Shown here: one piece after another, positions 121 through 18,749 of the stretch
How the letters are laid out: every line of letters starts with the position of its first letter
Numbering within the stretch: the stretch's first letter is position 1
Assembly (NCBI GenBank): GCA_034006035.1
Contig: JAVETN010000001.1
Location: 228,392-252,391, forward strand
Reading direction: 5' to 3'
Length of the DNA: 24,000 nucleotides
Source: Desulforegulaceae bacterium
GTDB lineage: Bacteria; Desulfobacterota; Desulfobacteria; Desulfobacterales; JACKCP01
Made by a program: the position numbers and the translations under genes
The notes under the pieces: model-generated
The model's database searches: none
Told to the model about the DNA's origin: nothing
What the model saw: the letters and a program-made list of their open reading frames with translations, nothing else

Positions 121-2376
121 TTAAAATAAAGAGTTGATAAAACAGCTTGAACTTCCGCTTGATGATTTCATAGGTTTTGGATCTGGGACATTGTAATATT
201 CACTTGTGATGGCTATTCCTCCTTCTGATTCAGCAGAAAAAAGAAGGGAATCGCTTAAGGTGACTTTCAAAACTTTTCCTCTTGAAGGTAATTCTTTTTT
301 TAGAGTTCTATTAAAACTATAGATATTTATTCCTTTATCGGTTCCCGCATAAATAAAATCTTTACTTGCTGAAATTGTATTTACCTTTGTTTTGGCATCA
401 ATTCTATTTGTTTGTATAAGGTCTGTGCTGTTTAATGTATAAATAAGCTTTCCTGCTGCTACAAAAAGAGTTGAATTTTTACAATAAATATCTGTAATTT
501 CATTTTCGGGATTAAATTCTTCTGCTTTGAAAAGAAGGTAAGGGGCTTCAGAATTATCAAGACTTAAACTTTTAAGAGTTTTATCAGAGCCTGTAAAAAG
601 AGTTTTTGAATTTTTATCAATAAATAATGACTGAAATTTTTGGTCCTTTTTAAAAGTTTCTCCAACCGACAAAATTTCAGAATTTTCATATTTATAAATT
701 TCAATTCCTTTTTCAGTCCCAAGATAAATGTATGGTTCATTAACTGCCAATGAAAGAGGCGTTGAGGTAATATCAAATGATTTTTCAATTTTAGGGTCTG
801 ATTCAATATTTCCAAAAAGTAAAATTTTGTTTTCACTTACACCAACAAAACTTTCTGAGAATTTTTTAATGAAAAGAGGGTTATCTTTTTTAATCAATTT
901 AATCAGTTTTAATTGTGTGTCATCAGATAAATCAAAAAATAAAAACCCTGAGTTGCCAGATTTAGAGCTGATTGCGGATAAAATGTTTTTGTTTTTTTCG
1001 ATTTGGGAAAATGAGTAAAAAGGATTTGTTGATTTTACTGTGCTGGGCTCTGAATTGACTGGGACATTAATTTTTGAAATACCCTTTGAAATATCAGAGA
1101 TAAAAACTGAGGCGTTTTCATGTGTTAATGAATCATATTTTAATGAATAAGAATAGCTGAACCCGTTTTTATATTCTGTAGTTTTATAAATATTTACCCC
1201 TTCACCATCTTTGTCTGAAGTTGTGTTTGATATCACTGAGTAGTCGACAATTTGCAAGCCTTTTTCACCATCTGCAATAAAAGCCAATGAGCCGGATTCA
1301 TTTAGATCTAAAGAGTTCCCTGCTAAAATATCCTGGCTTCTTCCTAGATTCTCAGGCCTTTTTTCCCCTTGATTTTCAAGTAAATTCCCTTTATCATCAA
1401 ACACTTTAAACTTAAACAAAGCTGTTTTTTGATTATTCTGGTAGTCATAGGGACTTGTAATAAAAATAAAAATATTCGACTCAATTTCTTTAGCTTTTAT
1501 ATCTTTAGCAAGACTTATTGTGTTAAAATTAACTATTCTTAGATCCCTTTTAGATACTGGTTCAGGTTGGTCTTGAATTTTTTTTAATTCTTCAATTTTT
1601 TCAGGAGAATCAGGAAGAGGAGTGTTAATCGGCAACTGAGTATTTATAAGAGCTGTTTTTTTCTTATCCGATTGTTTGTAGTCTTTTGTTAGATCAAAAA
1701 TTTTTAATCCATAATTACGATCAAGAATTGCTAAATAATCTTTTCCACCAAAGGAGAAAAAATCAATGTCAAAATATCCCCCTGTTGTTAATTCTTTTTC
1801 TGATAAGCCGTTTTGCCTATAACCGCCTAAATATTCGAATTCCAGGTTGTTAGCTCCTTTATCTACTTTAACTATTCTGAAACCATAGTTATAATCTGCA
1901 ATATAAAGATAGTCTCCGTTAAGAGCAAGGCCATGAGCGTCTATTTCAGCTAAGCCCTCCAAGGTCTTTCTTGGTTTACCTTTGAGGAAGCCTGGATCAA
2001 CACCAATGCTTTTAATGTTTTTTATTTCATCTTCGTTAATGTTTTTAATATCTTTGTCGTTGTAATCATAAACAAAAACCCCTGATTTACCCGCAGCTAA
2101 ATATAAGATTTTATTTGTATTATCAGTAATAACAGCGGTAATGGAATTGGAAGGACTTATATCAAAAGAACTTTTGAGGTTTAATTCTTTGTCATAAATT
2201 TTCAATATGGTTCCAAGGCCATGGAAAACATAATTGTCATCTATTGCCACAGCGTCATCTGAAAAATGAGGCCAACTATTAGTGTTTAATAGTTCAAATG
2301 AATGAATGGAAAAACTGGAAAATCCCATGAATAAAACAAGTAAAACTATTTTTTTAAAATTTAATTTGAGCTTCAA
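121..2376 (-). CDS. Secreted beta-propeller surface protein with LVIVD-like repeats and a C-terminal poly-Ser + CFINSLF tail
   Basis: 751-aa ORF with signal peptide MKLKLNFKKIVLLVLFMGFSSFSIHS. The unit Y-x-A-x3-4-G-(L/I/F)-x-I-x-D/Y recurs (YLYIADYNYGFRIVKV, LAILDRNYGLKIFDL, AFIADGEKGLQIVDY, IYLGTEKGIEIYKY, IYAGTDKGINIYSF). The start codon is TTG at 2376..2374, preceded by GAGGGGG. It overlaps the upstream gene by 23 nt. The protein ends SSSGSSSCFINSLF. Confidence 0.85.
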   Translation of the reverse strand: MKLKLNFKKIVLLVLFMGFSSFSIHSFELLNTNSWPHFSDDAVAIDDNYVFHGLGTILKIYDKELNLKSSFDISPSNSITAVITDNTNKILYLAAGKSGVFVYDYNDKDIKNINEDEIKNIKSIGVDPGFLKGKPRKTLEGLAEIDAHGLALNGDYLYIADYNYGFRIVKVDKGANNLEFEYLGGYRQNGLSEKELTTGGYFDIDFFSFGGKDYLAILDRNYGLKIFDLTKDYKQSDKKKTALINTQLPINTPLPDSPEKIEELKKIQDQPEPVSKRDLRIVNFNTISLAKDIKAKEIESNIFIFITSPYDYQNNQKTALFKFKVFDDKGNLLENQGEKRPENLGRSQDILAGNSLDLNESGSLAFIADGEKGLQIVDYSVISNTTSDKDGEGVNIYKTTEYKNGFSYSYSLKYDSLTHENASVFISDISKGISKINVPVNSEPSTVKSTNPFYSFSQIEKNKNILSAISSKSGNSGFLFFDLSDDTQLKLIKLIKKDNPLFIKKFSESFVGVSENKILLFGNIESDPKIEKSFDITSTPLSLAVNEPYIYLGTEKGIEIYKYENSEILSVGETFKKDQKFQSLFIDKNSKTLFTGSDKTLKSLSLDNSEAPYLLFKAEEFNPENEITDIYCKNSTLFVAAGKLIYTLNSTDLIQTNRIDAKTKVNTISASKDFIYAGTDKGINIYSFNRTLKKELPSRGKVLKVTLSDSLLFSAESEGGIAITSEYYNVPDPKPMKSSSGSSSCFINSLF

Positions 2377-3205
2377 AACTTACCCCCTCTTCATCTCCAA
2401 TACGCTTTTGGATTGCGAGTGAATATCTGTCTTTGGCAAAAAAACTGATTCCAAAAATCCACCCAATATTTTTTGAGGTTTTAATTTTTTCTTCATATAA
2501 AAAGTCTTCTTTTTCAATATAAAGTTTTTCATCTCCTGTTATACTTGAAACTCTTGGTCCCAAAAAAACTTTTATATGATCAGTCGAGCCAGTCAGTACC
2601 ACCCCTGCTTGAAGTTCATCAAGATCTGCTTCATAAGTTAGATTGTTTCTTCCCTGTTTTTTAGCATCTATGGTTATTTTATTGTATTTAAAATCAAGAT
2701 GGGCATTTAGATGTTTGAAAATTGAATTAACTTCTTTTTCAAACATTTTAAAGGCCAATCCTCCTCCAAAGCTGACCATTGAATCATCTTTTACATGAAA
2801 TTTACTTGGAGAGGTATACAAACCACTTATTGTTTCGTCCAGTATCATTAAGTCTGATTCAAATTTCCCAAAACCTGCTTTACCGTAAATTAAAAAATTG
2901 TCAAAAAATAAAAAACCTGCCTCAACTTCATTGAGATCAAAGGTATTATTGGAGCTCCTTGTTCTGGAATAATGCCTGTGATCATCTGTAGAGTTCTTGG
3001 GTTTGTGCAAGAATGTTTTTATTTGTTTTGGAAAATCGTTTTCTTGGTGATCTCTTCTGATAAGGATCTGAAACCCCGATAAAAATTTACTATCCTTGTT
3101 TTCAGTGTAAGAAAAAGAATTGATTCCTGAAACAGGGGCAGATAAAACTGAAACAGAACTTAATGGATATAATAATATAGAAATGAGTAACCATATTTTT
3201 TTCAA
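2354..3205 (-). CDS. Outer-membrane beta-barrel protein (OmpA/porin-like small barrel)
   Basis: 283-aa ORF with signal peptide MKKIWLLISILLYPLSSVSVLSA. It shows alternating amphipathic strands and a C-terminal VSFEAQIKF ending in Phe, typical of an OMP beta-signal. The start is TTG (3205..3203) with GGAGG 8 nt upstream. Confidence 0.8.
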   Translation of the reverse strand: MKKIWLLISILLYPLSSVSVLSAPVSGINSFSYTENKDSKFLSGFQILIRRDHQENDFPKQIKTFLHKPKNSTDDHRHYSRTRSSNNTFDLNEVEAGFLFFDNFLIYGKAGFGKFESDLMILDETISGLYTSPSKFHVKDDSMVSFGGGLAFKMFEKEVNSIFKHLNAHLDFKYNKITIDAKKQGRNNLTYEADLDELQAGVVLTGSTDHIKVFLGPRVSSITGDEKLYIEKEDFLYEEKIKTSKNIGWIFGISFFAKDRYSLAIQKRIGDEEGVSFEAQIKF

Positions 3206-3250: not shown

Positions 3251-3760
3251 TTAATCATTGAAAGATGATATTCTTATATTGCCTGAAATTTCGGCTTTAA
3301 ACCCTTCCACAGTGATGCTGCCAAAACTCTTCCCGTCATTCATGAATTTGACACCGTCTTCCCCTTGAATTGTTATTGATCCAATATGGTATCTGTCTAT
3401 TTGGACCAAAGACTTGTCCAGTTCCACATTTATTCCACTGGTCAATCTACCTGTATAAGGATCAATTGAAGTGGTTTGATTTATGGAAACTGGATTGTCG
3501 AGGAAGGTCTTTCCTGAATACACAATTCCTTTAATCAGCAAAGACGCAGGATTCCCGTCGGTGCCGTCGTCATCCCTGAAAATTAAGTTCTCTGCAGTCC
3601 AGTCAATTCCAAGAATATTGTCACTGCTAATTCTAATTCCTGACTGTCCTGTCAAGGTCTTCATTTTTTCAGGAGAAACCGGCGAAAGAGCAATGGCTTG
3701 TCCAGCGGTAAGGATTATTATAGATACCATTATTGTTGCTATGTATGAAAACTTGGTCAT
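3251..3760 (-). CDS. Small secreted GQxG-motif protein (fifth paralogue of the cargo family)
   Basis: The ORF track starts at a TTG at 3799, but ATG 3760..3758 has a perfect AGGAGG 6 nt upstream and yields a clean signal peptide, MTKFSYIATIMVSIIILTAGQAIA. After the signal peptide comes SPEKMKTLTGQSGIRISSDN and later DDDGTDG. Both motifs are shared with the genes at 10746..13886. Confidence 0.8.
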   Translation of the reverse strand: MTKFSYIATIMVSIIILTAGQAIALSPVSPEKMKTLTGQSGIRISSDNILGIDWTAENLIFRDDDGTDGNPASLLIKGIVYSGKTFLDNPVSINQTTSIDPYTGRLTSGINVELDKSLVQIDRYHIGSITIQGEDGVKFMNDGKSFGSITVEGFKAEISGNIRISSFND

Positions 3761-3794
3761 AGCTGACCTCCTATCTGTAAGATCAAATCTCACA

Positions 3795-4110
3795 GGCAAC
3801 CCGGCTAGCCTTAAATTAATAAGGTCCCGCAGCTTTCCGTCCCGGAATTACTTCCGGTTTGGCTAAAGAGGGCGGCCCGGCTGACCATAAATTCTGGCCC
3901 CGTGGCTTTCCGTCCCATGGTCACCCAGTGGTTTGGCTAGTTATTCTGACTCTCTTGGCAACTCGGCTGACCTGAAAAATTCAGGCCCCGTAGCTTTCCG
4001 TCCCGGGATTACTCCCGGTTTGGTTTTTACAAAGTGTACAGGTGGCTAGGCTGACCTTGAGTAAACAAGGTCCCTTGGCTTTCCGTCCCGGAGTTACCTC
4101 CGGTTTGGCT
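3795..4110 (-). repeat. Four tandem copies of a GC-rich structured RNA element in the 5' leader of 3251..3760
   Basis: Units lie at 3795..3864, 3871..3938, 3957..4025 and 4041..4110. The minus-strand consensus is AGCCAAAC-[P1 hairpin with GNRA loop]-GACGGAAAGCY-RYGGG-[P2 hairpin]-CAGCC. P1 variants are CCGGAG-GUAA-CUCCGG, CCGGGA-GUAA-UCCCGG, CCGGAA-GUAA-UUCCGG and CCACUGG-GUGA-CCAUGG, so the stem changes are compensatory. Unit 4 is about 57% G+C by hand count, against AT-rich flanks. Confidence 0.75.
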
Positions 4111-4155
4111 CTGGTATCCTTTGGTTTGAATTTCACCCTTAATCGTTTTTTGCCT

Positions 4156-4205
4156 CCATGCAGATTTTTTTATTTTCATAAAAAGATCTGCATGGCAGTT
4201 TTTTT
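4156..4205 (+). terminator. Strong hairpin plus T-run; canonical intrinsic terminator only in the plus orientation, function unclear
   Basis: ccatgcagat (4156..4165) pairs perfectly with atctgcatgg (4186..4195), and T/A pairs extend the stem inward. A T-run at 4199..4205 follows on the plus strand. On the minus strand the stem is followed by AGGCAAAAAACG, with no U-run. No plus-strand gene lies upstream. Confidence 0.4.
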
Positions 4206-4257: not shown

Positions 4258-4287
4258 GGAACAAAGACCTGATAATTTAATCAGGCT
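4258..4287 (-). terminator. Weak candidate terminator after the TolB-like gene
   Basis: Minus strand: CCUGAU-UAAAUU-AUCAGG (arms 4280..4285 and 4268..4273), followed by UCUUUGUU. The stem is short and the U-tract imperfect. Confidence 0.3.
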
Positions 4288-4364: not shown

Positions 4365-5846
4365 TTATTTAATTATACATTGATATTTAACAAAATCCAA
4401 TCCATTTACACCAAGAGAATGAAATTTGTTTTCAGATTCAAAAATTATTGGAAATTTTGATATAAAATTGTCTATTGGTGTTTTTGTTTCAATACCGTCA
4501 ATATTTAAGATCCATTTTTTATCATCATGGCTTGCACAATAAGCAAGGCGATTTCCTTTGGGACTGAACTTGGGCAGGCCGGTGATAGCCTTGTATTTTC
4601 TTCCCTCATTTTCATTTTTTACCATTACAACGTTTTTTCCATCAAATGCCATATAGGCAATTTCATTTTTTACAGGATTAAATATTGGCTGTTTTACATC
4701 AAAATAGGCTTTGCCTTCTTTTTTATCCCAAACTACAAACCATCCCTTTTGTTTTAAAAAAGCTCTATAAGCGTAGTTTCTACCATCGGTTGAAAACTTA
4801 ATAAGACCTGAAGAGTCGTACTCTTTTTCTTTTTTACCGTTTATCACAATTGTGGGTTTGTCTTTTTTTATTCCCGGATATCCGTATGAATTTCCAGTAT
4901 CAGAATATGCAATAGGACCAAGAGTATCGAATTTGAATTCTTTTTTTCCGTTTACAACCATCTGCCAGTCTTTTCCTGTGTTTGCAGGATAGGAAAGAAT
5001 TGTTCCTTGCGGGTTGTAAAAAGGTTCGCCAATGGTCTTGTAGGGCGGGTGTTCATTAAAGTTTTCTAGCAAAATGAGGTTGTCTTTATCATTTTGAACC
5101 ACACAGGCGAAATTGCCCAATTTGGAAAATTTTAAAAGTATGGCATTTTTATAAGGTTTTGATTCTTTTTCATCAATAAAGACCTGCCAGCCATTGTCCT
5201 TAAAAGCTATGAACCCTAGCTTTGAAGAATCAGGGCTGAAAACAAGTTCATTTATATTTTTGAAAGGCCCATATTTTTTGTCCTGGCAAATTACATATCC
5301 TTTGTGTCTGCCTTCAAAGGCAATATAGGCCAGTCTTTTTCCGTCAGGACTGAAAACAGGGTCATTTTTAAATCCGTCAAAACTTTTGCCTTCTCTTCCA
5401 TTTATTACAACAAATTGTTTGTCACCTTTTTGGGCTATATAGGCAAAGTTTTTACCATCATTACTTGTTACAAGATTGCCTGTACCATCATATTTTTTTT
5501 GTTCCTCCCCATTGATTACTGCAAAATAATTGGAGTTAGAAATTGCTGTAAAAGCAGAGATTCCTGAAAAAGGAGCAAAAAATGGGGTGCCTTTCCCAAG
5601 GCTTTGATAGGGTCCATAGACTTTTGAATTTATCTGGGCAAACATTTTTTTATCTTTTAAAAGGGTTATTCCTAGTTTGTCGTAATCAGGAAAGTTTGAG
5701 GAAATATCAAGAATATTTGATTGCTCTGGAGGTGTTGATAAGCTTATTATTTTTTCATTTATTTCAAGGATTTCGGCATTAATCAGGGGGGAATAAATTA
5801 ATGACAGGGCAAAGACAATGGTTGGAACATTAAATCTGATTTTCAT
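4365..5846 (-). CDS. Periplasmic TolB-like (PD40/WD40-like) beta-propeller repeat protein
   Basis: 493-aa ORF with signal peptide MKIRFNVPTIVFALSLIYSPLINA. A unit of about 45 aa repeats: FSPDGKRLAYIAFEG, FSPDSSKLGFIAFKD, SNDGKNFAYIAQKG, FSTDGRNYAYRAF, FNPVKNEIAYMAF, FSPKGNRLAYCAS. Each is followed by (V/I)INGKE-x-K-x-(Y/F)D. Confidence 0.8.
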   Translation of the reverse strand: MKIRFNVPTIVFALSLIYSPLINAEILEINEKIISLSTPPEQSNILDISSNFPDYDKLGITLLKDKKMFAQINSKVYGPYQSLGKGTPFFAPFSGISAFTAISNSNYFAVINGEEQKKYDGTGNLVTSNDGKNFAYIAQKGDKQFVVINGREGKSFDGFKNDPVFSPDGKRLAYIAFEGRHKGYVICQDKKYGPFKNINELVFSPDSSKLGFIAFKDNGWQVFIDEKESKPYKNAILLKFSKLGNFACVVQNDKDNLILLENFNEHPPYKTIGEPFYNPQGTILSYPANTGKDWQMVVNGKKEFKFDTLGPIAYSDTGNSYGYPGIKKDKPTIVINGKKEKEYDSSGLIKFSTDGRNYAYRAFLKQKGWFVVWDKKEGKAYFDVKQPIFNPVKNEIAYMAFDGKNVVMVKNENEGRKYKAITGLPKFSPKGNRLAYCASHDDKKWILNIDGIETKTPIDNFISKFPIIFESENKFHSLGVNGLDFVKYQCIIK

Positions 5847-7647
5847 GGTTTATCTGATCCTTTTCTACTTTTTTATCTTTTTTAAATGGATTTAATTTTT
5901 TTAAAAATTTTTTTACTTTACCTGCAGCGTGGTGGAGCATTTCCTGCTGATGATGCAGCATTTCCATTTGAACAGAAAGGGGCATGGTAACTCCAAAAAG
6001 TGCAATATAAAGATAGGTTTCCTGCTCATAATCCAGCCCTGCATAGGGATTGTAAACTATTTTGGTAAAATCTGTTGAGTTCATATTGGTGCTTGAGTTG
6101 TTTGGAACTTTAAGTGAATCATTAAACAAATAGCCAAAGCCAAAATCCAGGGTAACATTTTTAGGCAGATGAAGGGAAAATCCAGCAGCATAAAAAGTCA
6201 TATCAGGGAGAAAATAAAGTGCATCAATTTTATCTTTTGGAAGAGATGCAGGTCGAAATTCATAACCGCATCTTAAAGTAAGCCAGTCTTTTGGATAAAC
6301 TTCAAGACCAACTCCCCAATGCCAGGTATCTTCCATTTCCCTTTTAACAATAAGATTATTATCTCCGCCTGTATATCCAAGAAGTTTAGCTATCCTGAAA
6401 AGCTGAATTCTTTGATCAAAAGTAAATTTATCTTCTTTTAAAGCAGCCCAGTTTGACCAGTGGAGATCTGCTGTGATCTGAATTTTTGACCAGGGTTTTA
6501 GTTTTATACCCATATCAATTCTTCTTGGAAAAAGCTGGGTTGCTGTCACTCTTCCAGTTTGAGAAGGCACTGCTTTGTAGGGCATATCAAGCATCCCTGC
6601 TGTTGTCATTGTATATTCTGTGCTTCCGTTCCAGGCAATCTGTCGCTGCCATTGTTCACTATAGGTAAATTTGTATTTTCCTGAAAGTTTTGCTTTTGCC
6701 TGACTCTGGTAAGAAAGGCCAAATCCAAACCAATGGGTTGGTTCCCATAAAAGACCAAGATTTACCGAAGGGGTAAAGTCATCTCTTAGGTCCATTTCCA
6801 TGCTTGTGTTGTGCTCATAGGGACCAAGTCCGCCTCCAAGCCAGGGGGCTGGAAGAGTCAATTGTGAAACAACAGGTATTTCAAGATCTCTTGTTGCATC
6901 ACCAATAACCCTTGTAAGTCCGACAAGCTCGTTTGGGGTTCTTTGATCAAGGGATATTCCCATTGCTGTTTGTCCAAATCCCACTGAAATTCCAAGTGAG
7001 AGTTGGTCTGAGGCTTTATAGCTCAAAGTTGGAGCAGCATAAATAAGATGCTGAAGGTAAAGAGATTTACATCCAAAACGAAGAGGATCCCCTGGATCAT
7101 TATGGGTCATCCCTCCTCCGTAGGGAGCGTAGTTTGTGTATGCAAAAGTCCACTTTGAGTCAGGCTTTCTATGGGATAGTCCAAGGCTCACAGCAGCAAG
7201 AAAATCTATTGGACCAAGAAAAGGGATGTACATTTTGGTTGAGGAGTTTGTGCCTTTTGTATTCCTTAATGGATCAGGGCCTCCATGGTTTGAATCCGGG
7301 TCATTTATATTAGGTTCAGCATTTGGCCCCCATTTGTCGCCCATAAAACCTTTAAAGTCTTTATTTTCTTTAAAGCTCCCTTTTCTTTTAATTATAGGTA
7401 TACCAAAACCGTTGGAAAACATTGCTCCTTCATCAATTTTTGATAATCCTGCAGGATTGAAATGAGCAGACATATGACCAGGAGGAGAGGCTGTGCATGC
7501 ATTTGCAAGACCTAAAGCTCTTGCATCAATTGCAGGGTTTTCATTGAAGGTTGCCAATGTTTCTTTTGATAAAAACAAAACAAGAACAATTGTAATTAAA
7601 AGTTTTTTTATTCTCATGTTTTTTGTTTTTGGGCTAAGGAGTTTCAT
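5830..7647 (-). CDS. FadL/OMPP1/TodX-family outer-membrane transport barrel with an unusual basic/His-rich C-terminal extension
   Basis: 605-aa ORF. Its N-terminal region ARALGLANACTASPPGHMSAHFNPAGLS matches the FadL hatch-domain pattern (G-x-A ... NPAG-L). The body is long and beta-strand-rich. An alternative start is M11 (ATG 7617..7615, giving MRIKKLLITIVLVLFL); neither start has a clear SD. It overlaps the next gene by 17 nt. Confidence 0.8.
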   Translation of the reverse strand: MKLLSPKTKNMRIKKLLITIVLVLFLSKETLATFNENPAIDARALGLANACTASPPGHMSAHFNPAGLSKIDEGAMFSNGFGIPIIKRKGSFKENKDFKGFMGDKWGPNAEPNINDPDSNHGGPDPLRNTKGTNSSTKMYIPFLGPIDFLAAVSLGLSHRKPDSKWTFAYTNYAPYGGGMTHNDPGDPLRFGCKSLYLQHLIYAAPTLSYKASDQLSLGISVGFGQTAMGISLDQRTPNELVGLTRVIGDATRDLEIPVVSQLTLPAPWLGGGLGPYEHNTSMEMDLRDDFTPSVNLGLLWEPTHWFGFGLSYQSQAKAKLSGKYKFTYSEQWQRQIAWNGSTEYTMTTAGMLDMPYKAVPSQTGRVTATQLFPRRIDMGIKLKPWSKIQITADLHWSNWAALKEDKFTFDQRIQLFRIAKLLGYTGGDNNLIVKREMEDTWHWGVGLEVYPKDWLTLRCGYEFRPASLPKDKIDALYFLPDMTFYAAGFSLHLPKNVTLDFGFGYLFNDSLKVPNNSSTNMNSTDFTKIVYNPYAGLDYEQETYLYIALFGVTMPLSVQMEMLHHQQEMLHHAAGKVKKFLKKLNPFKKDKKVEKDQINHENQI

Positions 7648-7661
7648 TTCAAATCTTTAAA

Positions 7662-8807
7662 TTAGAGTTTAAAATCAAAGGGTATGCTTAAACTAAAACT
7701 TACATCTGAGTTACTATTGAAAAGTCCTATATTTAAACTTGTATTAACTGAGCGGGTGCTTGAAATTCTCCAATTTGTGCCTATGGAAAGTGAAGATGAA
7801 TAAGATGTGGGAGAAGTGCTTTTTCCTATGTTCCTCCAATAGTAATCCGTTGAGTAGCTATATGTATACTGAAACCCCACACTAACTGAAACAAGATATG
7901 ATAGGGAATAACCCATCCCAAGATTGGCACTTATTTGGTTTCCCGGACTTACTTTTTCAATATAAATTCCCTGTTCTTTTTGTTCTTTGTCGGTATTGTA
8001 CTTTGCATCGTCCACATCCATATTTTTGTAAAAAGAAATTCCGCCAAAGGCAATAACCGGGTCAATTGATTTGCTGAAATTTGCACCGGCAAAGACAGTG
8101 TAGTATCCATTTCCTATTGCAACCTCATCATCACCGTCCATTTTATAGGGATTGTCTCCAAGGGGGACAATTATCCCTGCATTGAGAATTGTTGTTGGAA
8201 TTCCTTCTCTTGGCTTGAAGGGTTGGTATTGGATGTTAAAGCTTGGGTCTCCTATTCCACTTCCGTTTTTTGAACCTTTTTGACTGTCTATATATTCATA
8301 GGAAAAGGGGATATTTGAAGAAAGGGTGAGGTTTTTTAAAATCGGTACTTTAAATGAAAGAGAATTGGAAAGTTTATGGGAGTTTAAATGCTTTACCATG
8401 GTGCTTGTTCTTCCGTTTTCATCTTCAACTGATTGCAATTGGTCATAGGTGTCTCCTGTATAGCTTATTGAATAGGAAATGTTTAAAAGACCTGGAGTTG
8501 CAAGAGTGTATTCACGGCCGGCAGCATCAAGAATATCTTCGTCTTTTTGTTTTTTTTCTTCATCAGTTTGTTTAAGCTCGCTCATTACTTCCGAAGCTTT
8601 TTGTTTTTTTTCAATCTCAAGTAAGAGCTGTTCAAGCTTTTCCAGTCTTTCTTTTATTTCTGGAGAATTTTTACGATCGATTTCATCTGCATTGAGGTTT
8701 GAATAAACTGGTAAAAGAATAAATAATAAAATTATTAAATAGAAAAAAGGAAGTTTTTTGGTTGCTAATTGAAGTTTTGTAGCCATTTGCCTTTGCTTTC
8801 CAATCAA
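7662..8807 (-). CDS. Outer-membrane beta-barrel with N-terminal coiled coil (FapF-like architecture), paralogue B
   Basis: 381-aa ORF. After the signal peptide comes a heptad-like charged helix (EIKERLEKLEQLLLEIEKKQKA), then AAGREYTL and an amphipathic-strand barrel containing a GIGDP motif; it ends IPFDFKL. The codon at 8807 is TTG. ATG at 8786..8784 (MATKLQLATKK...) is an equally good or better start. Confidence 0.8.
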   Translation of the reverse strand: MIGKQRQMATKLQLATKKLPFFYLIILLFILLPVYSNLNADEIDRKNSPEIKERLEKLEQLLLEIEKKQKASEVMSELKQTDEEKKQKDEDILDAAGREYTLATPGLLNISYSISYTGDTYDQLQSVEDENGRTSTMVKHLNSHKLSNSLSFKVPILKNLTLSSNIPFSYEYIDSQKGSKNGSGIGDPSFNIQYQPFKPREGIPTTILNAGIIVPLGDNPYKMDGDDEVAIGNGYYTVFAGANFSKSIDPVIAFGGISFYKNMDVDDAKYNTDKEQKEQGIYIEKVSPGNQISANLGMGYSLSYLVSVSVGFQYTYSYSTDYYWRNIGKSTSPTSYSSSLSIGTNWRISSTRSVNTSLNIGLFNSNSDVSFSLSIPFDFKL

Positions 8808-9904
8808 AGAATAAAATTAAAAGGTATTCTGAATTTAAAACTAAAATCTTCGTCATTATTTGTGAGCCCAATACCCAGTTCCATATAAATTTTTCTTTTT
8901 TCTGTGATTTGCCAGGCAGTTCCTAGCAAGAAAAGCGAGCTGGTGGTTGAAGAAGAAGAAAGTTTTCCTCTTCCTCTCCAAGTATAATCAGTTGGGAATT
9001 GATAAATAAATTTACATCCAAAGCTTATGGATACATTTTCTGAAATAACATAGCCCATTCCAGCATTAAAACCAGCCTCATCTCCAGGGTTTATTTTTTT
9101 TAAATATTCACCTGTTTCGCCAAGGTAAATTGAGTTTTTAAAATCCAGTCTTGAGTTTTTAAATTTGTATGAGTAAAAAAAGCTTCCATAAACAAGGGTA
9201 GGGGAGACTTTTTTACTCATCCCAAGTCCTAGGTTGAATGTATAAACACCTTCTCCTGTTGGGAATTCTGTTTGGGGGTTTATTTCATAGGGGCTTCTTC
9301 CCATGGGAAAGGTAAAACCAGAACTTATTGTAAACCCGGGTTTGTTGTCTTGTTTTTTGAAGGGCTGGAATAAAATTCCCATATAGGGGTCTCCAAAATC
9401 ATCCATATCAGCAGTTTCCCCCTGAATATCATCATAGATTGATACAAAAGGCAGATCAATTAGAAAGGAAAGATTGTTTTTTAAAGGATATTCAATTGAA
9501 ACAGTATTTACCATTCTGTGAGTTGCTTCACGCTCAAATGAAGTCCCTGATTCTTCTGCTGAACTTATTTGGTCATAGGTTTTTCCATAATATGAAAAAC
9601 TATAATCTACTCCGACTACTCCTTTGGGTCTCAGTGTATATTCACGGCCCGCAGCAGATAAAAGTTTTGAATACTCGTCTTGTTCAGATAAAAAATCTTT
9701 TTTGGTTTTTTCGGTCAGAGTTTTTTTGTTTAGTTCTTCTGCACGTTTTTCAAGCTCTATGATTTGTTTATCAAGAAGGTCTTGGTTGATATCTATTTCA
9801 TCTGCAAAACAGGCAACAAAGGGCAGGGTTAAAAAACACAAGAAATAAAAAACATATAATTTGCTGAATTTATTGGCCTTGATCATTTTTTGTAAGTCTT
9901 CCAT
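8804..9904 (-). CDS. Outer-membrane beta-barrel with N-terminal coiled coil (FapF-like architecture), paralogue A
   Basis: 366-aa ORF, colinear with 7662..8807 (both have AAGREYTL; DFGDPY vs GIGDPS; the ends are RIPFNFIL vs SIPFDFKL). The coiled-coil segment is LLDKQIIELEKRAEELNKK. An alternative start at ATG 9886..9884 (MIKANKFSKLYVF...) forms an ATGA overlap with the C39 stop, suggesting translational coupling. Confidence 0.8.
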   Translation of the reverse strand: MEDLQKMIKANKFSKLYVFYFLCFLTLPFVACFADEIDINQDLLDKQIIELEKRAEELNKKTLTEKTKKDFLSEQDEYSKLLSAAGREYTLRPKGVVGVDYSFSYYGKTYDQISSAEESGTSFEREATHRMVNTVSIEYPLKNNLSFLIDLPFVSIYDDIQGETADMDDFGDPYMGILFQPFKKQDNKPGFTISSGFTFPMGRSPYEINPQTEFPTGEGVYTFNLGLGMSKKVSPTLVYGSFFYSYKFKNSRLDFKNSIYLGETGEYLKKINPGDEAGFNAGMGYVISENVSISFGCKFIYQFPTDYTWRGRGKLSSSSTTSSLFLLGTAWQITEKRKIYMELGIGLTNNDEDFSFKFRIPFNFIL

Positions 9905-10626
9905 GGTCCTGTTTCATCCAGCCTGTAGGTTTCAATTTTATGGGTTGGATCTATTGAGGGAGTCATCAGGGTTTCCTGAAATTCTTTGTCAATATATCTT
10001 AAATCTCTTCTTGAAAGCTTAAGGTTTGAGATTGTTTTTTCTTTATCTGCCCAGATGATGAACATTATATTGTCATCCCAGATTTTTTTAAATTTATCCA
10101 TTGAGTAGCTGGAATTCCCCAGGAAAGGATCAGCAAGAAAAACATGATCTTTATAAATTCCTTTTAAAACAACAAAATGTTTATAATTGTATACCTTGAT
10201 TGGAAGGATACAAGGCCAGTACTCATTGTTATTCAAGTCTTCCAGTTTAGCTTTGTAGCCCCCGCTTTTATAGCCTATGGCGTCGAGAAACTGCTGCATA
10301 TCCCATAAAGAAAAAGCTCTGAGTTGTCTAATCTGCTCTTTATCGCCAAATTCCATGAGACCTCTTATAACTTGTTTTTCGCTTAAGTTTTCGTTGAGAT
10401 AAAAGTTTAAAAGAGTTGCAAGAGCAGCAGAACCGCAGCTGAAATCATGCTCCTGCTTTACTATATGTCTGAAGTTTTCTTCAGTAAAAGGGATGATATC
10501 TTCTCTGATGCGAATTTCACCTTTATAGCCTGAAGAAAAAATAGCAATTTTTTTATCTGCTCCTGCTTCAGGAAAAAAATTTGGGATTAAAGCAATTAAA
10601 ATTGCAAAACCTATGGCAAAGTGCAT
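9883..10626 (-). CDS. Stand-alone exported C39-family cysteine peptidase (FapD/FilB-like), catalytic residues intact
   Basis: 247-aa ORF. Q58-x5-C64-G (VKQEHDFSCGSAALATLLNFY) matches the C39 oxyanion Gln plus the nucleophile Cys. H150 and D166 sit in KHFVVLKGIYKDHVFLADP, the C39 pattern H-f-v-V ... DP. It has a hydrophobic N-terminus (FAIGFAILIALIPNFF) and is not fused to an ABC transporter. Confidence 0.85.
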   Translation of the reverse strand: MHFAIGFAILIALIPNFFPEAGADKKIAIFSSGYKGEIRIREDIIPFTEENFRHIVKQEHDFSCGSAALATLLNFYLNENLSEKQVIRGLMEFGDKEQIRQLRAFSLWDMQQFLDAIGYKSGGYKAKLEDLNNNEYWPCILPIKVYNYKHFVVLKGIYKDHVFLADPFLGNSSYSMDKFKKIWDDNIMFIIWADKEKTISNLKLSRRDLRYIDKEFQETLMTPSIDPTHKIETYRLDETGPWKTYKK

Positions 10627-10745: not shown

Positions 10746-11399
10746 TTAAGGCTGATCCCACCAATGGTTTGGAGCAAAAGCGTTTTGAATATTTCCTTCA
10801 CTAAAACCAAGAACAGAATGAATTCCCTGATTTCCTGCCTGGGGATTTAGAATAAGAAAAAAACCCTGTCTTTCTGAACTTGAGTCAAAAGAAAAGTTTT
10901 TGGAGCCCAGGTTTTCTCTTGAATATTCCAGCGGAGGAGAGTTCCCACCTTCAAGAGCTGGGTGAAATGTTCCTGTAAATGAGTTGAAATTACCGGAAAT
11001 GTTTCCATTGAGCATATTGGAACCTATTATAAGTCTTTTAAGGGTTGGATTGGCAGAGTTTAAATCGTCAAAATCCGCTTTTATAATAAGTCCGTCAATT
11101 GTTAAATTTGCAGTATTTGTTCCAATACTTATATTTGTCCAGTTTTGATCCCAGCCGTTTGCACCTTCTTTTGCATAATAGCCAAGCTTGATGGATTCAA
11201 TTTCTGTAAAGGTTTCAATATGGGTATTTAAAAATATTCTTGTTGTTGTGTTAGTGGTGGTAAAATCTGAAAAAGAAATTTGTCCTGTGGTTGTTTTCAT
11301 TTTTTCTTTTGAAAGTTCCTCAAGGGCAAAAGAAAAATTTACAAAAATACTGAAGAAAACAATTAGAATAAAAAGAAAGAATAGTTTAGTTTTAATCAT
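10746..11399 (-). CDS. Small secreted GQxG-motif family protein (divergent member)
   Basis: 217-aa ORF with signal peptide MIKTKLFFLFILIVFFSIFVNFSFA, followed by LEELSKEKMKTTTGQISFSDF. Its ATG forms a 4-nt ATGA overlap with the upstream stop (11396..11399). Confidence 0.8.
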   Translation of the reverse strand: MIKTKLFFLFILIVFFSIFVNFSFALEELSKEKMKTTTGQISFSDFTTTNTTTRIFLNTHIETFTEIESIKLGYYAKEGANGWDQNWTNISIGTNTANLTIDGLIIKADFDDLNSANPTLKRLIIGSNMLNGNISGNFNSFTGTFHPALEGGNSPPLEYSRENLGSKNFSFDSSSERQGFFLILNPQAGNQGIHSVLGFSEGNIQNAFAPNHWWDQP

Positions 11400-12292
11400 A
11401 GATTACCCAAGTTTCTTCCAGGCACTTCAATTGTTAGTCTATGTATATTTATTCCGTCAATTGCAACGGCACCAAAATCTTTATTTCCCAAGTGGATATT
11501 TTCAATTCTTAGAGAGCCAGTGATTGGGGCTGAAACATAAATAACTGGTTCTGTATCAGATCCTGTTGGATCATTGGTTGCTCTTTGTCCTATATCAAAG
11601 GTGGCAGGAGAGTTGGTTTTAAAATTACCTAATTTAAATTTCCCTGAAGGCTGCCAGGTTGAAGGGTTTTCAGGAATGCCTGAAAACGAATCTGCAATAA
11701 ATAGGTTTTGAAATCCAAGCCAGTTTCCATTGGCTTCCGGTCCGTAGTCAAATTTAAATGAATCTACCTTAAGCTGGAATCCTGTCTCAAAATCTATGCC
11801 TGAACCATGACCTCCAAAGTAAAGATTCCATTTTGGAAAACCTGTTCCTATGATCTCCATGCTTCCAATGGCTGATTGGTTAAATTCCAGTTCACCAATT
11901 TTAATAAAGGACTGAACCTCAAAATCATCAGATTCAATTGAAATATAGGGGTTTGGATATCCGCCTGAAGCTGGGTCAGAAGGGCTGGCTATATCAATGA
12001 GGATTTCTCCCATAATTCCGTCATTGTCAAAATCAACATTGCCTGTATTATAAGTGGTTAAGGTTTTTACGTTTTTAAAATTGAGATAACCCGGGGTTGG
12101 TTTATTTAAGTCATCAATTAATTTGATTTGTGAATCTTCATTGTAAAAAACTGCATTGTCAATGGCAATAGAAATACCTGCCTGGGCAGTTTGAGATTTT
12201 AACTCGTTTTCACTCATCAAGGATATTGCGAATAGACTTGAATTTGTCAGGCAGATAAAAATTATAATTGTAGTAAGGTTTTGTAAAAACAT
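11396..12292 (-). CDS. Small secreted GQAG-motif family protein
   Basis: 298-aa ORF with a hydrophobic N-terminus, then MSENELKSQTAQAGISIAIDNAVFY and DFDNDG. GGAAG lies 5 nt upstream of the ATG. Confidence 0.8.
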   Translation of the reverse strand: MFLQNLTTIIIFICLTNSSLFAISLMSENELKSQTAQAGISIAIDNAVFYNEDSQIKLIDDLNKPTPGYLNFKNVKTLTTYNTGNVDFDNDGIMGEILIDIASPSDPASGGYPNPYISIESDDFEVQSFIKIGELEFNQSAIGSMEIIGTGFPKWNLYFGGHGSGIDFETGFQLKVDSFKFDYGPEANGNWLGFQNLFIADSFSGIPENPSTWQPSGKFKLGNFKTNSPATFDIGQRATNDPTGSDTEPVIYVSAPITGSLRIENIHLGNKDFGAVAIDGINIHRLTIEVPGRNLGNL

Positions 12293-12310: not shown

Positions 12311-13036
12311 TTATTTGTTTGGACTTACTTCAACAGTGCCTCCAAAAATTACCTGGGTGGCAGGGCCCTTTTCAATTGTAAGAAGAGTCTGGTTGCTGTT
12401 CATTGCCTCAAAATCAGATCCAGTAAAAAAAACTATGCTTTTTGTTGAGTGTCCAGTTGTGGCTTCAATGGAAGGAAGTTTTGAAATAATTCCTCCTTTT
12501 ATAAGGTTTGGTTCCACTGGGAGAATCCTTGAAATCTCTTTGAGGCCTGAATTTATAACACCCATTGCTGTAAGAAGAGGGCAAAAGTCTGTTGTTTCAA
12601 TTATCAGGGGAGAAAAGTTAACTCCTTTTTCTTTTGTTGATTTCTTATTTTCTTCCCTGTGTATTTTATTAATTTCTGAATTATAATTTTTAATTAAATT
12701 TTTATTTAAACTAAGATTCCCGATTTGTTCACCAAAATCTTTTTTAAGTTTGGCATTGGAATATTTTCCAAAATCAGTTACAGGTTTGAAGTATAATCTA
12801 GAACCTTGATCATCTGAAATTATCTTTATTCCTGCTTTTTTAATTGAGCCGTATCCGTCGGTGTCAGTATAGATTATGGTACCATATTTAACTTTTACTA
12901 TAATTTCTTCTAGCTCAATTGCTATTCCAGCCTGGCCTCTTATTTTTTTCAAATCATCCTGGTGAAGTATTTCTTTTGAGAAACAGGGAAAAATAAAAAC
13001 AGAAAAAATAATTAATGTTGCAATTGTTTTTTTCAT
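12311..13036 (-). CDS. Small secreted GQAG-motif family protein (closest paralogue of the major-subunit candidate)
   Basis: 241-aa ORF with signal peptide MKKTIATLIIFSVFIFPCFS, then HQDDLKKIRGQAGIAIELEE and YTDTDGYG. Its C-terminus LLTIEKGPATQVIFGGTVEVSPNK parallels ALITIEKSGTSTMAILGGTLEIAPH of 13113..13886. GGAGA SD. Confidence 0.85.
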   Translation of the reverse strand: MKKTIATLIIFSVFIFPCFSKEILHQDDLKKIRGQAGIAIELEEIIVKVKYGTIIYTDTDGYGSIKKAGIKIISDDQGSRLYFKPVTDFGKYSNAKLKKDFGEQIGNLSLNKNLIKNYNSEINKIHREENKKSTKEKGVNFSPLIIETTDFCPLLTAMGVINSGLKEISRILPVEPNLIKGGIISKLPSIEATTGHSTKSIVFFTGSDFEAMNSNQTLLTIEKGPATQVIFGGTVEVSPNK

Positions 13037-13112: not shown

Positions 13113-13886
13113 TTAATGAGGAGCTATTTCAAGGGTTCCACCTAGGATAGCCATTGTTGATGTACCTGATTTTTCAATTGTGATTAGGGCATGATTTGCG
13201 TTAAAGTGTTCCTGGTCAGCTGTTCCGTATGAATCTGTAACTATACCAGCAGCCGCATCCCAGGTACCGTTTCTTAATTTAATGGTTTTGAAATCTACTG
13301 TTGAATAGGTTTTGATTTCAACTGTAGGAAGACCGATTACAACACCACCAACTGCAAGAGCTGATGCAGGAAGAGTTGCTGCGTCCATTCCAGTTGTATT
13401 GTAGTTCCATCCAGCTGTAAGGGCCTTACATGTTCCAACATCAATTGTTAGTGGAGAAATACCTGTTGTAGTTCCTGCCATCTGGCCATTTGTAGGATCT
13501 AGAGTGCCACCGGCAATAGCTGCTGCAACACCAGCTGATTCGATAATACCAATGTCTTCTGTGTTACCAAATGTGGCTCTTAGTGCATCTACTCCATAAA
13601 TATCTGCATTAAGTATTGCATTTATTGTTATAAGTTTTTGCATTTCTTCTGCCTGGTCTATCATGATACCGGCTGCACCAGTCATTCCGTTTACACCATC
13701 GGTATCCCAGAATGTGCTGTCTGCTAAACTTTTTTGATAAATTACAATACCATCAACTGCAATAGAAACCCCAGCCTGACCTGTTGCAGATCTAAGCTGT
13801 GAATTGTCCATTTTTTCAAGTGCTGATGCTGCCATTGGCATGGTGAGAATTGCTGCTACTGCTAAACCTACGATAAAACGTTTCAT
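13113..13886 (-). CDS. Secreted Ala/Gly/Thr-rich GQAG-motif protein; candidate major structural subunit
   Basis: 257-aa ORF with signal peptide MKRFIVGLAVAAILTMPMAASA, then LEKMDNSQLRSATGQAGVSIAVDGIVIY and FWDTDGVNG. It is first in the block, with a strong SD (AGGAGGAG), its own structured leader and its own terminator. It is visibly more GC-rich than its neighbours. Confidence 0.85.
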   Translation of the reverse strand: MKRFIVGLAVAAILTMPMAASALEKMDNSQLRSATGQAGVSIAVDGIVIYQKSLADSTFWDTDGVNGMTGAAGIMIDQAEEMQKLITINAILNADIYGVDALRATFGNTEDIGIIESAGVAAAIAGGTLDPTNGQMAGTTTGISPLTIDVGTCKALTAGWNYNTTGMDAATLPASALAVGGVVIGLPTVEIKTYSTVDFKTIKLRNGTWDAAAGIVTDSYGTADQEHFNANHALITIEKSGTSTMAILGGTLEIAPH

Positions 13887-13940
13887 AAAAATCTCCTCCT
13901 AGACAGGTTAGTTAAAAAAAGTTTGTTCCAACCTACCAGA

Positions 13941-14028
13941 GGCAGCCTGGCCATCCTTAAAGTCTTTTCAAGTCAGTGCATTAAGGACCCGTTTGGCTTT
14001 CCGACCCCCGATTACCCGAGGTGTGGCT
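13941..14028 (-). ncRNA. Fifth copy of the two-hairpin RNA element, in the 5' leader of 13113..13886
   Basis: Minus strand: AGCCACA-CCUCGG-GUAA-UCGGGG-GUCGGAAAGCC-AAACGGG-UCCUUAA-(19-nt loop)-UUAAGGA-UGGCCAGGCUGCC. The order of elements is the same as in units 3795..4110. P1 contains U-G and G-U pairs that would be C-A and A-C mismatches on the plus strand. Confidence 0.7.
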
Positions 14029-14149
14029 TTTTCTTGGCATTTTTAATTTTGTTTCCGTTTGTTAAATTTAAAGGTTAATTCCTTTTCAGTATATAATCTT
14101 TTTGGCGGAAGGTTATCCTACTGATTTTTATTTAGCTACGGAAACACTC

Positions 14150-16910: not shown

Positions 16911-17030
16911 AGTATAGAATTTAATTTAATTCAAAGCTTGGTGCTTGGGTTTTTTATCATCTTTGTTGATTTATTAATATTTTTTTGGTTGTATAGTTGT
17001 TTACTCGAAAGGTTTAAGGAATAAAATTTG

Positions 17031-18749
17031 ATGAAGAAACCTCGAATACTGTTTGTTTGTGAAAAAGATTTTAAAACTTTGAAGCTGGCAGTTCAAATAG
17101 CCTTGGATAAATATGGTGAACACGCTGGTTTTGAGGGATGTTTTACAGGAGAAGTTTCAAACAAATTATCTGATAAAAAACTTGAAGATTTTAATTTAAA
17201 AACTCCTTTTGCGTTCAATGGCAAATCCTTTGACATTATAATTTCACTTTGTAGTACAAAATCAGAAAAGTTTCGCCAGTTTGCAGGATTTCCTGTGATT
17301 GTTGACTGGTCTGATAAAATTGAGTCCGCGGTTAAAGAAAAAGCCCTTGGCCCAATACTTGAAAAAGAACTTCAATGCTTTTTTGACTCAGGTTATTTTT
17401 CCGGGATAAAAAATTATAAGTTCAATATGGATCTTATAATAAACTCTCTTGGAGATGCGGTAATAGCCCATGATTTGAATAGAAGGATTTATTATTTTAA
17501 TAAAACAGCAGAACAGATTACAGGATACACTCAGGAAGAAGTTTTGGGTAATGATTGTCATGATGTTTTCCCTTCTCCAATTTGTGGGAAAAACTGTTCT
17601 TTTTGTGTAGGGCTATCTCCTGATCAAAGTTTTAAAAGCAAATCCTATAAAACAACATTTCATGATAAGTCAGGAACAAGAAAAGAGCTTAAGGTAAATA
17701 TAATTCCAATCAGGGATTCTTTTAATATTCTAAGGGGAGTAACTGCTTCTATTAAAGACCTTACTGAACTTAATCTTGCCAAGGAGCAAATACTTAAAGA
17801 GCAGAATTTTAATGGAATTATAGGTAAAGATCCTGAAATGCTAAAAGTTTTTCAGCAGATAAAAGATCTTGCACTCTATGATACACCGGCTCATATCTAT
17901 GGTGAAACAGGAACAGGAAAAGAGCTGGTGGCAAGGGCAATCCACAATGAAAGTATAAGAAGTTCTCTGCCTTTTGTTCCTATAAACTGTGGAGCACTTC
18001 CCGAGGGCTTAATTGAAAGTGAACTTTTCGGTCATGTAAAAGGTGCTTTTTCCGGAGCTATAAGAGATAAAAAAGGAAGATTTGAGCTTGCAGATAAAGG
18101 GACAATTTTTCTTGATGAAGTTGGTGAACTCCCTAAAAATATTCAGGTAAAGCTTTTAAGGGTTTTGCAGGAAGGGACATTTGAAAAGGTCGGTGGAGAA
18201 TCAACTATCAAGGTTGACGTAAGAGTTTTAAGTGCAACAAATAGAAATTTGAAACAGGCTGTTCAAAAAGGTGAGTTTAGAGATGATCTTTATTATCGTC
18301 TTAATGTTGTTCCTATTTACCTTGTGCCCCTTAAAAAAAGAAAAAACGATATCCCGGTTTTGTGTGCCCATTTTCTCAAAAAAATTGCCAGCCGCCATAA
18401 ACAGGAAAAACTTGATATTTCCAAAAGAGCCTTAAGTGCACTAATGGACTATGACTGGCCTGGAAATGTAAGAGAGCTTGAAAATATTATTGAATATTCA
18501 ATTATCCATTCTTTAGGTTCTGTGATTGATTTAGAAAGTCTTCCTGAAGAAATTCAAGAAGTTGCCAAAAATAGAGATAAAACCCTTAGAACCAATAAAT
18601 CAAGGGGAAAACTTAACCGGGCTGCTGTTATTTATGCTCTTGAAAAAACCGGAGGAAATAAAACCAAAGCCGCCAAGATTTTAGGTGTTGGGCGGGCTAC
18701 TCTTTATAGATATTTGAATAACAATTCTGTTGATTTTGAAATCGATTGA
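17031..18749 (+). CDS. Sigma54-dependent transcriptional activator (bacterial enhancer-binding protein): N-terminal domain + Cys-rich PAS + AAA+ + Fis-type HTH
   Basis: Walker A is GETGTGKELVARAIH, the sigma54 contact loop is GAFSGA (a GAFTGA variant) and Walker B is IFLDEVGE, with ESELFGH also present. The C-terminal HTH is GGNKTKAAKILGVGRATLYRYL. A PAS-like segment is DAVIAHDLNRRIYYFNKTAEQITGYTQEEVLG. The ORF track begins at TTG 17028; ATG 17031 with AAGGA upstream is the likelier start. Confidence 0.92.
   Translation: MKKPRILFVCEKDFKTLKLAVQIALDKYGEHAGFEGCFTGEVSNKLSDKKLEDFNLKTPFAFNGKSFDIIISLCSTKSEKFRQFAGFPVIVDWSDKIESAVKEKALGPILEKELQCFFDSGYFSGIKNYKFNMDLIINSLGDAVIAHDLNRRIYYFNKTAEQITGYTQEEVLGNDCHDVFPSPICGKNCSFCVGLSPDQSFKSKSYKTTFHDKSGTRKELKVNIIPIRDSFNILRGVTASIKDLTELNLAKEQILKEQNFNGIIGKDPEMLKVFQQIKDLALYDTPAHIYGETGTGKELVARAIHNESIRSSLPFVPINCGALPEGLIESELFGHVKGAFSGAIRDKKGRFELADKGTIFLDEVGELPKNIQVKLLRVLQEGTFEKVGGESTIKVDVRVLSATNRNLKQAVQKGEFRDDLYYRLNVVPIYLVPLKKRKNDIPVLCAHFLKKIASRHKQEKLDISKRALSALMDYDWPGNVRELENIIEYSIIHSLGSVIDLESLPEEIQEVAKNRDKTLRTNKSRGKLNRAAVIYALEKTGGNKTKAAKILGVGRATLYRYLNNNSVDFEID

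Follow-up and report, generated by a model that had tools for sequence, protein, structure and literature searches.

No other class of riboswitch is found in tandem as often as the riboswitches for cyclic di-guanosine monophosphate (c-di-GMP). Tandem GEMM elements have been on record since 2007, and one third of the delta-proteobacterial GEMM elements are tandem (PMC1950547). Sherlock et al. 2022 listed 347 doublets and 12 triplets of class I c-di-GMP (c-di-GMP-I) riboswitches under "multiple expression platforms" (PMC9481103), and a 2025 census described c-di-GMP tandems as complete sensor-plus-regulatory units that are enriched in Thermodesulfobacteriota, treating "adjacent aptamers" as a speciality of glycine riboswitches (PMC12452182). 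In both censuses the members of a tandem, three at most, are regarded as complete switches independent of one another, and neither reports a quadruplet (PMC9481103; PMC12452182). Here, an array of four abutting c-di-GMP-I aptamers is described from a 24,000-nt stretch of a Desulforegulaceae genome (GCA_034006035.1, contig JAVETN010000001.1; this whole stretch is referred to as the window). The array lies on the minus strand at positions 3791-4118, in the 5′ leader of a gene at 3251-3760 encoding a secreted DUF6160/FilA-like protein. An earlier note, made from the sequence without database searches, had proposed a four-copy tandem two-hairpin RNA element at this site and had recognised no named RNA family.

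The window was scanned with Rfam and was also searched, filter-free, with a covariance model built for this analysis (R1). By these models the four repeats are c-di-GMP-I (GEMM-I) riboswitch aptamers (RF01051, clan CL00126), each composed of two hairpins with compensatory changes, as follows.

4037..4118, minus strand: aptamer U1, c-di-GMP-I; RF01051 53.9 bits (gathering score 35), R1 82.7 bits; ligand contacts G/A/C (G20-equivalent 4109, A47-equivalent 4082, C92-equivalent 4042); P2 loop GUAA.
3953..4033, minus strand: aptamer U2, c-di-GMP-I clan; RF03168 74.9 bits (gathering score 65.9); P2 loop GUAA.
3873..3946, minus strand: aptamer U3; RF03167 37.7 bits, E = 4.3e-8, searched alone, R1 65.7 bits; ligand contacts G/A/C; P2 capped by GUGA and carrying a bulged C.
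3791..3872, minus strand: aptamer U4; RF01051 56.9 bits, R1 82.5 bits; ligand contacts G/A/C (G20-equivalent 3863, C92-equivalent 3796); P2 loop GUAA; adjoins the expression platform.

Rfam gathering scores were exceeded by three of the four units. U3 was absent from the whole-window Rfam scan and was recovered by a narrow search (E = 4e-8), in which it stayed below the RF03167 gathering score even when searched alone (37.7 versus 59 bits). Exactly five copies were returned by R1 in the 24 kb, all of them in coding-strand 5′ leaders. The covariance-model matches to the array were all on the minus strand, in agreement with the earlier G-U pairing argument for the functional strand, and the placement of a structured cis-regulatory element in the leader of 3251-3760 is likewise supported. 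A composite motif, CCAAACC-N10-20-GGGACGGAAAGC, occurred four times versus 0.00 expected from 100 shuffles, and the G+C content of the array was 54% as compared to 35% for the window. Units measure approximately 80 nt rather than the approximately 70 nt estimated before, the inter-unit spacers are 8-21 nt, and the core-to-core spacings, read 5′ to 3′ along the RNA, are 85, 88, and 73 nt in place of 76, 86, and 84 nt. The array was not reported by Tandem Repeats Finder run on the window, because its units are too diverged. Two small minus-strand open reading frames over the array (3981-4136 and 4027-4179) were rejected as coding, since spacing differences between orthologues are not multiples of three and conservation tracks RNA pairing.

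Covariation was assessed in an alignment of 17 aptamers (the four window units, 12 orthologous units from three arrays, and the fifth window copy). Across this alignment 95.9% of cells were paired and 9 of 22 pairs carried a compensatory change, a result reached in 0 of 500 shuffles; with the partners slid, the paired fraction was 17-55%. The loops of the first hairpin are, in order, GUAA, GUAA, GUGA, and GUAA, the three GUAA and one GUGA described earlier, and stems vary with pairing retained. The compensatory pairing claimed for the first stem was thus kept across units, while the unit 3 stem is really CCA(C)UGG/CCAUGG, in which one C is bulged. An invariant unpaired CGGAAAGC had also been proposed between the hairpins. 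This segment, the junction of the family, is in fact paired in part: its GG forms pairs with the CC of CCAAACC, the A that follows is the A47-equivalent that intercalates with the ligand, and AGC opens the second hairpin. Ligand contacts (Vc2 numbering G20, A47, C92) were mapped by noting where the GGC and UAU variant models of Rfam differ, and are G/A/C, the c-di-GMP signature, in U1, U3, U4, and the fifth, single copy, and A/A/C in U2. The AAA linker is invariant in all units and the tetraloops are GYRA, both of which were described for the family by Weinberg et al. 2007 (PMC1950547). The units share with Vc2 of Vibrio cholerae and the RF01051 type the two-hairpin core, the GNRA (here GYRA) tetraloop, the CC...GG clamp, the AAA linker, and the G20/A47/C92 positions. 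They differ in that four copies stand head to tail, the internal units have no room for a private P1 or platform, and the last unit is followed by a 3′ hairpin where the 3′ strand of P1 normally lies.

Orthologous loci were compared from a Desulfobacteraceae metagenome-assembled genome (MAG; L004/L080), a Desulforegulaceae MAG (L007/L124), GCA_002754915 (L008), L129, and L130, which is partial and ends within the array. Four units in identical order were present at every locus with a complete leader (L004/L080, L007/L124, L008, and L129). Identity of the downstream protein ranged from 70% to 48% across the loci, all of which share gene order and the leader. Also kept were the bulged unit 3, the spacers, the 9-bp hairpin after unit 4, and the long hairpin upstream; the P2 bulge is the hallmark of U3 in all orthologues, and orthologous U3 units are 84-94% identical. 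Unit similarity was 85% by position across genomes and 78% within a genome, and the greater likeness of same-position units implies that the array is older than these species. A metagenome scan using the unit 3 hallmark as a probe yielded four loci, two of them new, which is too few for a test of spacer covariation.

Several features after the third unit point to a single output at the ribosome-binding site. The elements concerned are:

3866..3871, minus strand: anti-Shine-Dalgarno (anti-SD) tract in the U3-U4 spacer, directly 3′ of the U3 C92-equivalent; CCUCUU in the window.
3775..3795, minus strand: hairpin P4 (CUGUGAGAU-UUG-AUCUUACAG), one base after the U4 C92-equivalent, the usual site of the P1 3′ strand.
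3767..3772, minus strand: Shine-Dalgarno (SD) sequence AGGAGG, preceding the ATG (3758-3760) by 6 nt.
3251..3760, minus strand: regulated gene, a 169-aa secreted DUF6160/FilA-like protein with an N-terminal signal peptide (Pfam, NCBIfam, synteny).

The anti-SD tract is CCUCCU in orthologues and precedes the last aptamer in the arrays of both Desulfobacterales and Syntrophales. P4 was 100% paired in six orthologues; it starts with CUG and ends with CAG, which are also the closing pairs of the P1 of U1, and other lineages carry a different hairpin sequence at this site on the same CUG...CAG base. The layout of CCUCC tract, last aptamer, CUG...CAG hairpin, and SD recurs in Syntrophales and other Desulfobacterales. 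In the RNAalifold consensus of six leaders, an anti-SD:SD helix encloses a natively folded U4 together with P4. In minimum free energy (MFE) structures the partner of the SD was the anti-SD tract in L004, L007, L124, L129, and L103, as well as in L008 with the aptamers forced to be native. Forcing native aptamers also lowered SD accessibility (0.54 to 0.12 in L008, 0.14 to 0.02 in L129, and 0.09 to 0.02 in L004). In the anti-SD:SD helix 94% of cells were paired, versus 34-49% with the partners slid; for the helices taken together the figures were approximately 94% and 34-53%. A conserved SD-complementary tract, CCUCC, in the spacer that separates units 3 and 4 implies one translational output, so that several aptamers share one anti-SD/SD element, which follows the last of them and is kept in the orthologues, as in glycine-type arrangements.

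Based upon these folding results, we propose with a probability of roughly 60% that four adjacent c-di-GMP-I aptamers act on one SD output, likely by repression at high c-di-GMP. The CCUCC-type tract would pair with the SD in a short helix enclosing U4 and P4, with P4 standing in for the P1 of U4 and the 5′ strand of that P1 left free to serve as anti-SD. With P4 located where the P1 3′ strand of U4 would otherwise be, the anti-SD helix would run from just after the U3 C92-equivalent to 2-4 nt before the U4 G20-equivalent, and would lie between two ligand pockets. How stably Vc2 holds its ligand depends on the length of its P1a helix (PMC11705072), and Vc2 represses translation by masking of the ribosome-binding site according to the title of Inuzuka et al. 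2018 (cited in PMC11705072). Because ligand binding is coupled to P1 formation and Vc2 is reported to mask its ribosome-binding site, the most conserved features favor SD sequestration at high c-di-GMP; binding would most likely stabilize the anti-SD helix and reduce translation of the DUF6160 protein. U1 and U2, whose proposed P1 helices draw on one common spacer, would probably sharpen or gate the response. The array resembles Vc2 in lying within the 5′ untranslated region of a gene for a surface or fibre protein, as well as in the masking proposed.

A number of observations weigh against this proposal. SD accessibility in the window was approximately 0.56-0.60 in every modelled state, and the anti-SD tract of the window is weakened to CCUCUU and prefers the AAGAGAG of the U2-U3 spacer, a pairing that would make U3 an ON switch. 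The SD core cannot covary, and among the six near-invariant sequences no inter-unit helix has significant covariation. Thermodynamic folding takes no account of ligand energy, of tertiary contacts, or of the kinetics of folding during transcription. The sequence upstream of the array showed no sigma-70 consensus. Moreover, c-di-GMP usually switches adhesins on, as is also predicted for the single riboswitch of this locus.

Complementarity between the flanks and spacers suggests a form of coupling between the units. The segments involved are:

4111..4124, minus strand: 5′ flank A (CCAAAGGAUACCAG), proposed 5′ strand of the P1 of U1, in duplex with the U1-U2 spacer.
4025..4041, minus strand: U1-U2 spacer B (CUGUACACUUUGUAAAA), with complementarity to both flank A and the U2-U3 spacer.
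3938..3958, minus strand: U2-U3 spacer A-prime (CCAAGAGAGUCAGAAUAACUA), which nearly repeats flank A; its AAGAGAG can pair with the anti-SD tract.

The A:B duplex, formed by flank CAAAGGAU-CCAG with spacer CUGAU...CUUUG, had a free energy (dG) of -8.4 kcal/mol in the window and of -4.9 to -12.9 kcal/mol over six sequences, with 90% of cells paired; z scores versus shuffles were -2.6 to -5.3, with the exception of L008 (-1.4). The B:A-prime complementarity (CAAAAGGAUCAG) gave z scores of -0.9 to -3.9. The spacers have diverged in the window and in L008, and both pairings were nonetheless kept. Since spacer B is complementary to both A and A-prime, alternative P1 helices of U1 and U2 would share one strand. 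Pairing of A-prime with the anti-SD tract, which would form a P1 for U3, was found in the window and L004 only, and covariation of the inter-unit helices was not significant over the six sequences. Coupling through shared P1 strands is thus suggestive only. A stronger version, in which shared strands relay pocket occupancy into an ultrasensitive or band-pass translational response, and in which lineages with A at the G20-equivalent of the second unit could integrate c-di-GMP and 3′,3′-cyclic GMP-AMP (cGAMP), appears doubtful to us. If true, it would be an undescribed class of riboswitch architecture comprising the 4-5-unit arrays of Desulfobacterales, Syntrophales, and Clostridia.

The same sequences can be read with the opposite sign, as an ON switch, which we consider possible yet clearly less probable than repression. 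Here the anti-SD tract would be the 3′ strand of the P1 of U3, pairing with the purine tract of the U2-U3 spacer, so that binding by U3 would free the SD and translation would rise with c-di-GMP. With native aptamers, the window MFE structure does join AAGAGA to bases of the type UCUUU(C) around U3, the SD being mostly open, and L004 has AAGGA/UCCUU at this site, two compensatory changes relative to the window. The one single GEMM-I aptamer of the same locus uses exactly this P1-strand/anti-SD design, and c-di-GMP is generally known as a common inducer of surface fibres. However, the U2-U3 spacers of L007/L124, L008, and L129 contain no usable anti-SD complement (dG +0.2 to -1.5 kcal/mol, z > 0), whereas the anti-SD:SD pairing is conserved everywhere. 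It is improbable, in turn, that U4 alone controls translation while U1-U3 shield the leader from Rho or RNase in a ligand-dependent manner, or buffer ligand. Such a role would suit a leader of more than 330 nt with repeated C-rich CCAAACC segments that are single-stranded when unfolded, and arrays of 4-5 units do recur with just one SD platform; however, unit-specific conservation of the spacers together with the A:B and B:A-prime complementarity suggests coupled folding instead of passive bulk.

Four independent, complete riboswitches in series, each deciding on transcription termination and together giving a pseudo-cooperative, more digital response, would correspond to the only architecture described for tandem c-di-GMP-I riboswitches (PMC9481103, PMC12452182, PMC4759541). 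This arrangement is very unlikely here and is largely refuted at the sequence level: the spacers measure 8-21 nt, the RNA strand holds no terminator-like site between units (no minus-strand terminator was found within 3791-4119), and the period is 73-88 nt. In Bc3-5 of Bacillus thuringiensis, the one triple system that has been characterised (Zhou et al. 2016; PMC4759541), the period is approximately 160 nt and every unit has a terminator. The chance that the array is a leader titrating CsrA/RsmA, as the earlier note had suggested, or a REP/BIME-like repeat (repetitive extragenic palindrome/bacterial interspersed mosaic element), which it had named as the outcome that would overturn its proposal, is close to nil. 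GGA-containing motifs are indeed repeated over several hairpins. The motif in question, ACGGAAAGC, is nevertheless the GEMM-I core, and its conserved GGA is located within the paired clamp and the junction, with GG paired; the apical loops are GNRA (GUAA/GUGA) or AU-rich and contain no GGA. Scattering as a REP-like repeat is excluded because just five copies occur in 24 kb, all in coding-strand leaders.

U2 differs from its neighbors by an A at the G20-equivalent (4024), a signature of the GEMM-Ib/cGAMP type, with A47 and C92 kept. Its sequence was identical in an independent assembly (L001), and the closest orthologues carry G. The second unit also has A at this position in three of three Syntrophales arrays (L049, 1040-1107; L085, 3607-3675; L064, 2304-2372), the other units having G, and Clostridial arrays (L048) are variable here as well. 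This position discriminates c-di-GMP from cyclic AMP-GMP (c-AMP-GMP; PMC9481103), a G-to-A change at it lowered the c-di-GMP response of Bc3-5 (PMC4759541), and aptamers with A20 can still bind c-di-GMP (PMC6140456). U2 shares A20 with the GEMM-Ib riboswitches for c-AMP-GMP of Geobacter, but it is just one of four units here. The ligand selectivity of U2 cannot be read from the A20 base alone, and sensing of two ligands is a possibility.

In order to determine how widespread such packed arrays are, one genome per species was searched for three tightly spaced cores (at least 120 stretches), and candidates were checked using R1 and Rfam. Among the matches listed were the following arrays.

L103 (4563-4960) and L119 (5673-6068), Desulfobacteraceae, Desulforapulum: five abutting aptamers.
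L031 (6680-7208) and L048 (2015-2437), one Clostridia MAG: at least five abutting aptamers.
L049, L064, and L085, Syntrophales: four abutting aptamers (L105: two model matches, equal spacing).
L096, Thermodesulfobacteriota: four abutting aptamers.
L035, L057, L076, L107, and L112, Bacillota MAGs: four abutting aptamers.

Desulfobacterota arrays among these matches repeatedly sit ahead of a DUF6160-like gene of approximately 160-170 aa, the L103 and L119 arrays preceding genes of 166-167 aa. L048, L031, and L111 are separate arrays in the one Clostridia MAG, each ahead of large surface proteins. Chains of constant or near-constant period with GACGNAAAGC (13 copies in L044, 10 in L101, eight in L032, and seven in L075) were rejected, as they had no R1 match; nor did Rfam give any match for L044, L032, and L019. 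These four chains are probably CRISPR (clustered regularly interspaced short palindromic repeat) arrays or coding repeats, non-GEMM in either case, and false positives of the GACGNAAAGC x3 pattern are a caution for censuses based on motifs alone.

The window array therefore apparently belongs to a recurrent, undescribed arrangement of many aptamers on a single platform. Like Bc3-5 and other published tandems, it places several aptamers for the same ligand in one leader, from which a sharper, more digital response is expected. Those tandems are complete riboswitches with a terminator for every unit, whereas the array has a period of 73-88 nt and one SD platform, and its 8-21-nt spacers without terminators make it unlike the published c-di-GMP doublets and triplets. 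With the glycine riboswitch it shares a single platform for adjacent same-ligand aptamers and a short, conserved linker; the aptamer fold is different, with four units here and two there, and contacts between aptamers as well as cooperativity have been demonstrated for glycine riboswitches and are at most putative in the present array. The advance is hence one of architecture and not a new RNA class: the aptamer family is textbook knowledge, and the conserved four-aptamer, one-platform arrangement is what is new. Four aptamers (five in relatives) without private platforms and with one ribosome-binding-site output would mean that multi-site sensing of a second messenger by RNA is more elaborate than assumed. 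Cooperative binding of fused GEMM-I aptamers and the steepness of an RNA threshold become testable questions, and the array connects the Fil/DUF6160 fibre systems, which have hardly been characterised, with c-di-GMP.

The fifth copy in the window is located elsewhere in the same locus:

13937..14036, minus strand: single c-di-GMP-I aptamer (RF01051 match 13938-14037), ahead of the FilA-like gene 13113-13886.

It scored 43.9 bits with RF01051 and 61.2 bits with R1, and its anti-SD (CCUCU) falls within its own P1 3′ strand. SD accessibility was 0.18 (sequestered) in the free fold and 0.54 with P1 forced, and the element is predicted from this modelling to be a translational ON switch. If the array is OFF and the single aptamer ON, c-di-GMP would drive the two subunit genes in opposite directions.

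The leader of the array is flanked upstream by two hairpins:

4156..4195, strand not assigned: long hairpin of 18 bp upstream of the array, conserved in orthologues, with a T-run on the plus strand only.
4267..4286, minus strand: terminator-like hairpin after the upstream PD40-repeat gene; upstream limit for the leader promoter.

The longer hairpin was kept in L004, L080, and L008, and L007 and L124 carry a loop insertion of approximately 190 nt. It resembles an intrinsic terminator that points at the array on the antisense side and may be a 5′ stem-loop, a promoter element, or an antisense terminator. No sigma-54 -24/-12 match was seen by eye near the array. At the other end of the leader, a small hairpin (GGUCAGCUAUGACC, 3755-3768, minus strand) pairs the last two SD bases with the start-codon region; it was present in the window and L004 and absent in L007, L008, and L129.

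The product of 3251-3760 matched two family models, DUF6160 of Pfam (E = 1e-5) and pilus_FilA of NCBIfam (E = 2e-5), in each case under the curated cut-off; its orthologues have a precomputed PF19657 assignment, and synteny is conserved. An AlphaFold model of the 169-aa protein was all-beta past the signal peptide at low confidence (predicted local distance difference test score 57) and was used no further. From their sequence matches, the minus-strand genes around the array are assigned to a Fil/Fap-like fibre-secretion locus with 3251-3760 at its end. The other genes are:

13113-13886 and 11396-12292, minus strand: FilA-like DUF6160 proteins.
12311-13036 and 10746-11399, minus strand: N-terminal motif shared by eye with the FilA-like proteins, no family match.
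9883-10626, minus strand: FilB, C39 peptidase.
8804-9904 and 7662-8807, minus strand: two FilC (FapF-like) barrels.
5830-7647, minus strand: FilD, FadL-like.
4365-5846, minus strand: PD40-repeat protein, upstream of the array.
2354-3205, minus strand: weak outer-membrane beta-barrel match, under the Pfam cut-off.
121-2376, minus strand: weak beta-propeller/LVIVD-repeat matches.

A literature search for DUF6160 and Fil pili returned nothing useful. The large secreted repeat proteins encoded by 121-2376 and 19846-22635 (both minus strand) share a C-terminal tail (...SSSGSSSCFINSLF and ...SNNSSSSCFINSFF) that matches no NCBIfam sorting-signal model and is possibly a tag for sorting or anchoring that has not been described. 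Approximately 3 kb from the fibre locus, a gene for a sigma-54-dependent PAS-domain activator is located at 17028-18749 (plus strand).

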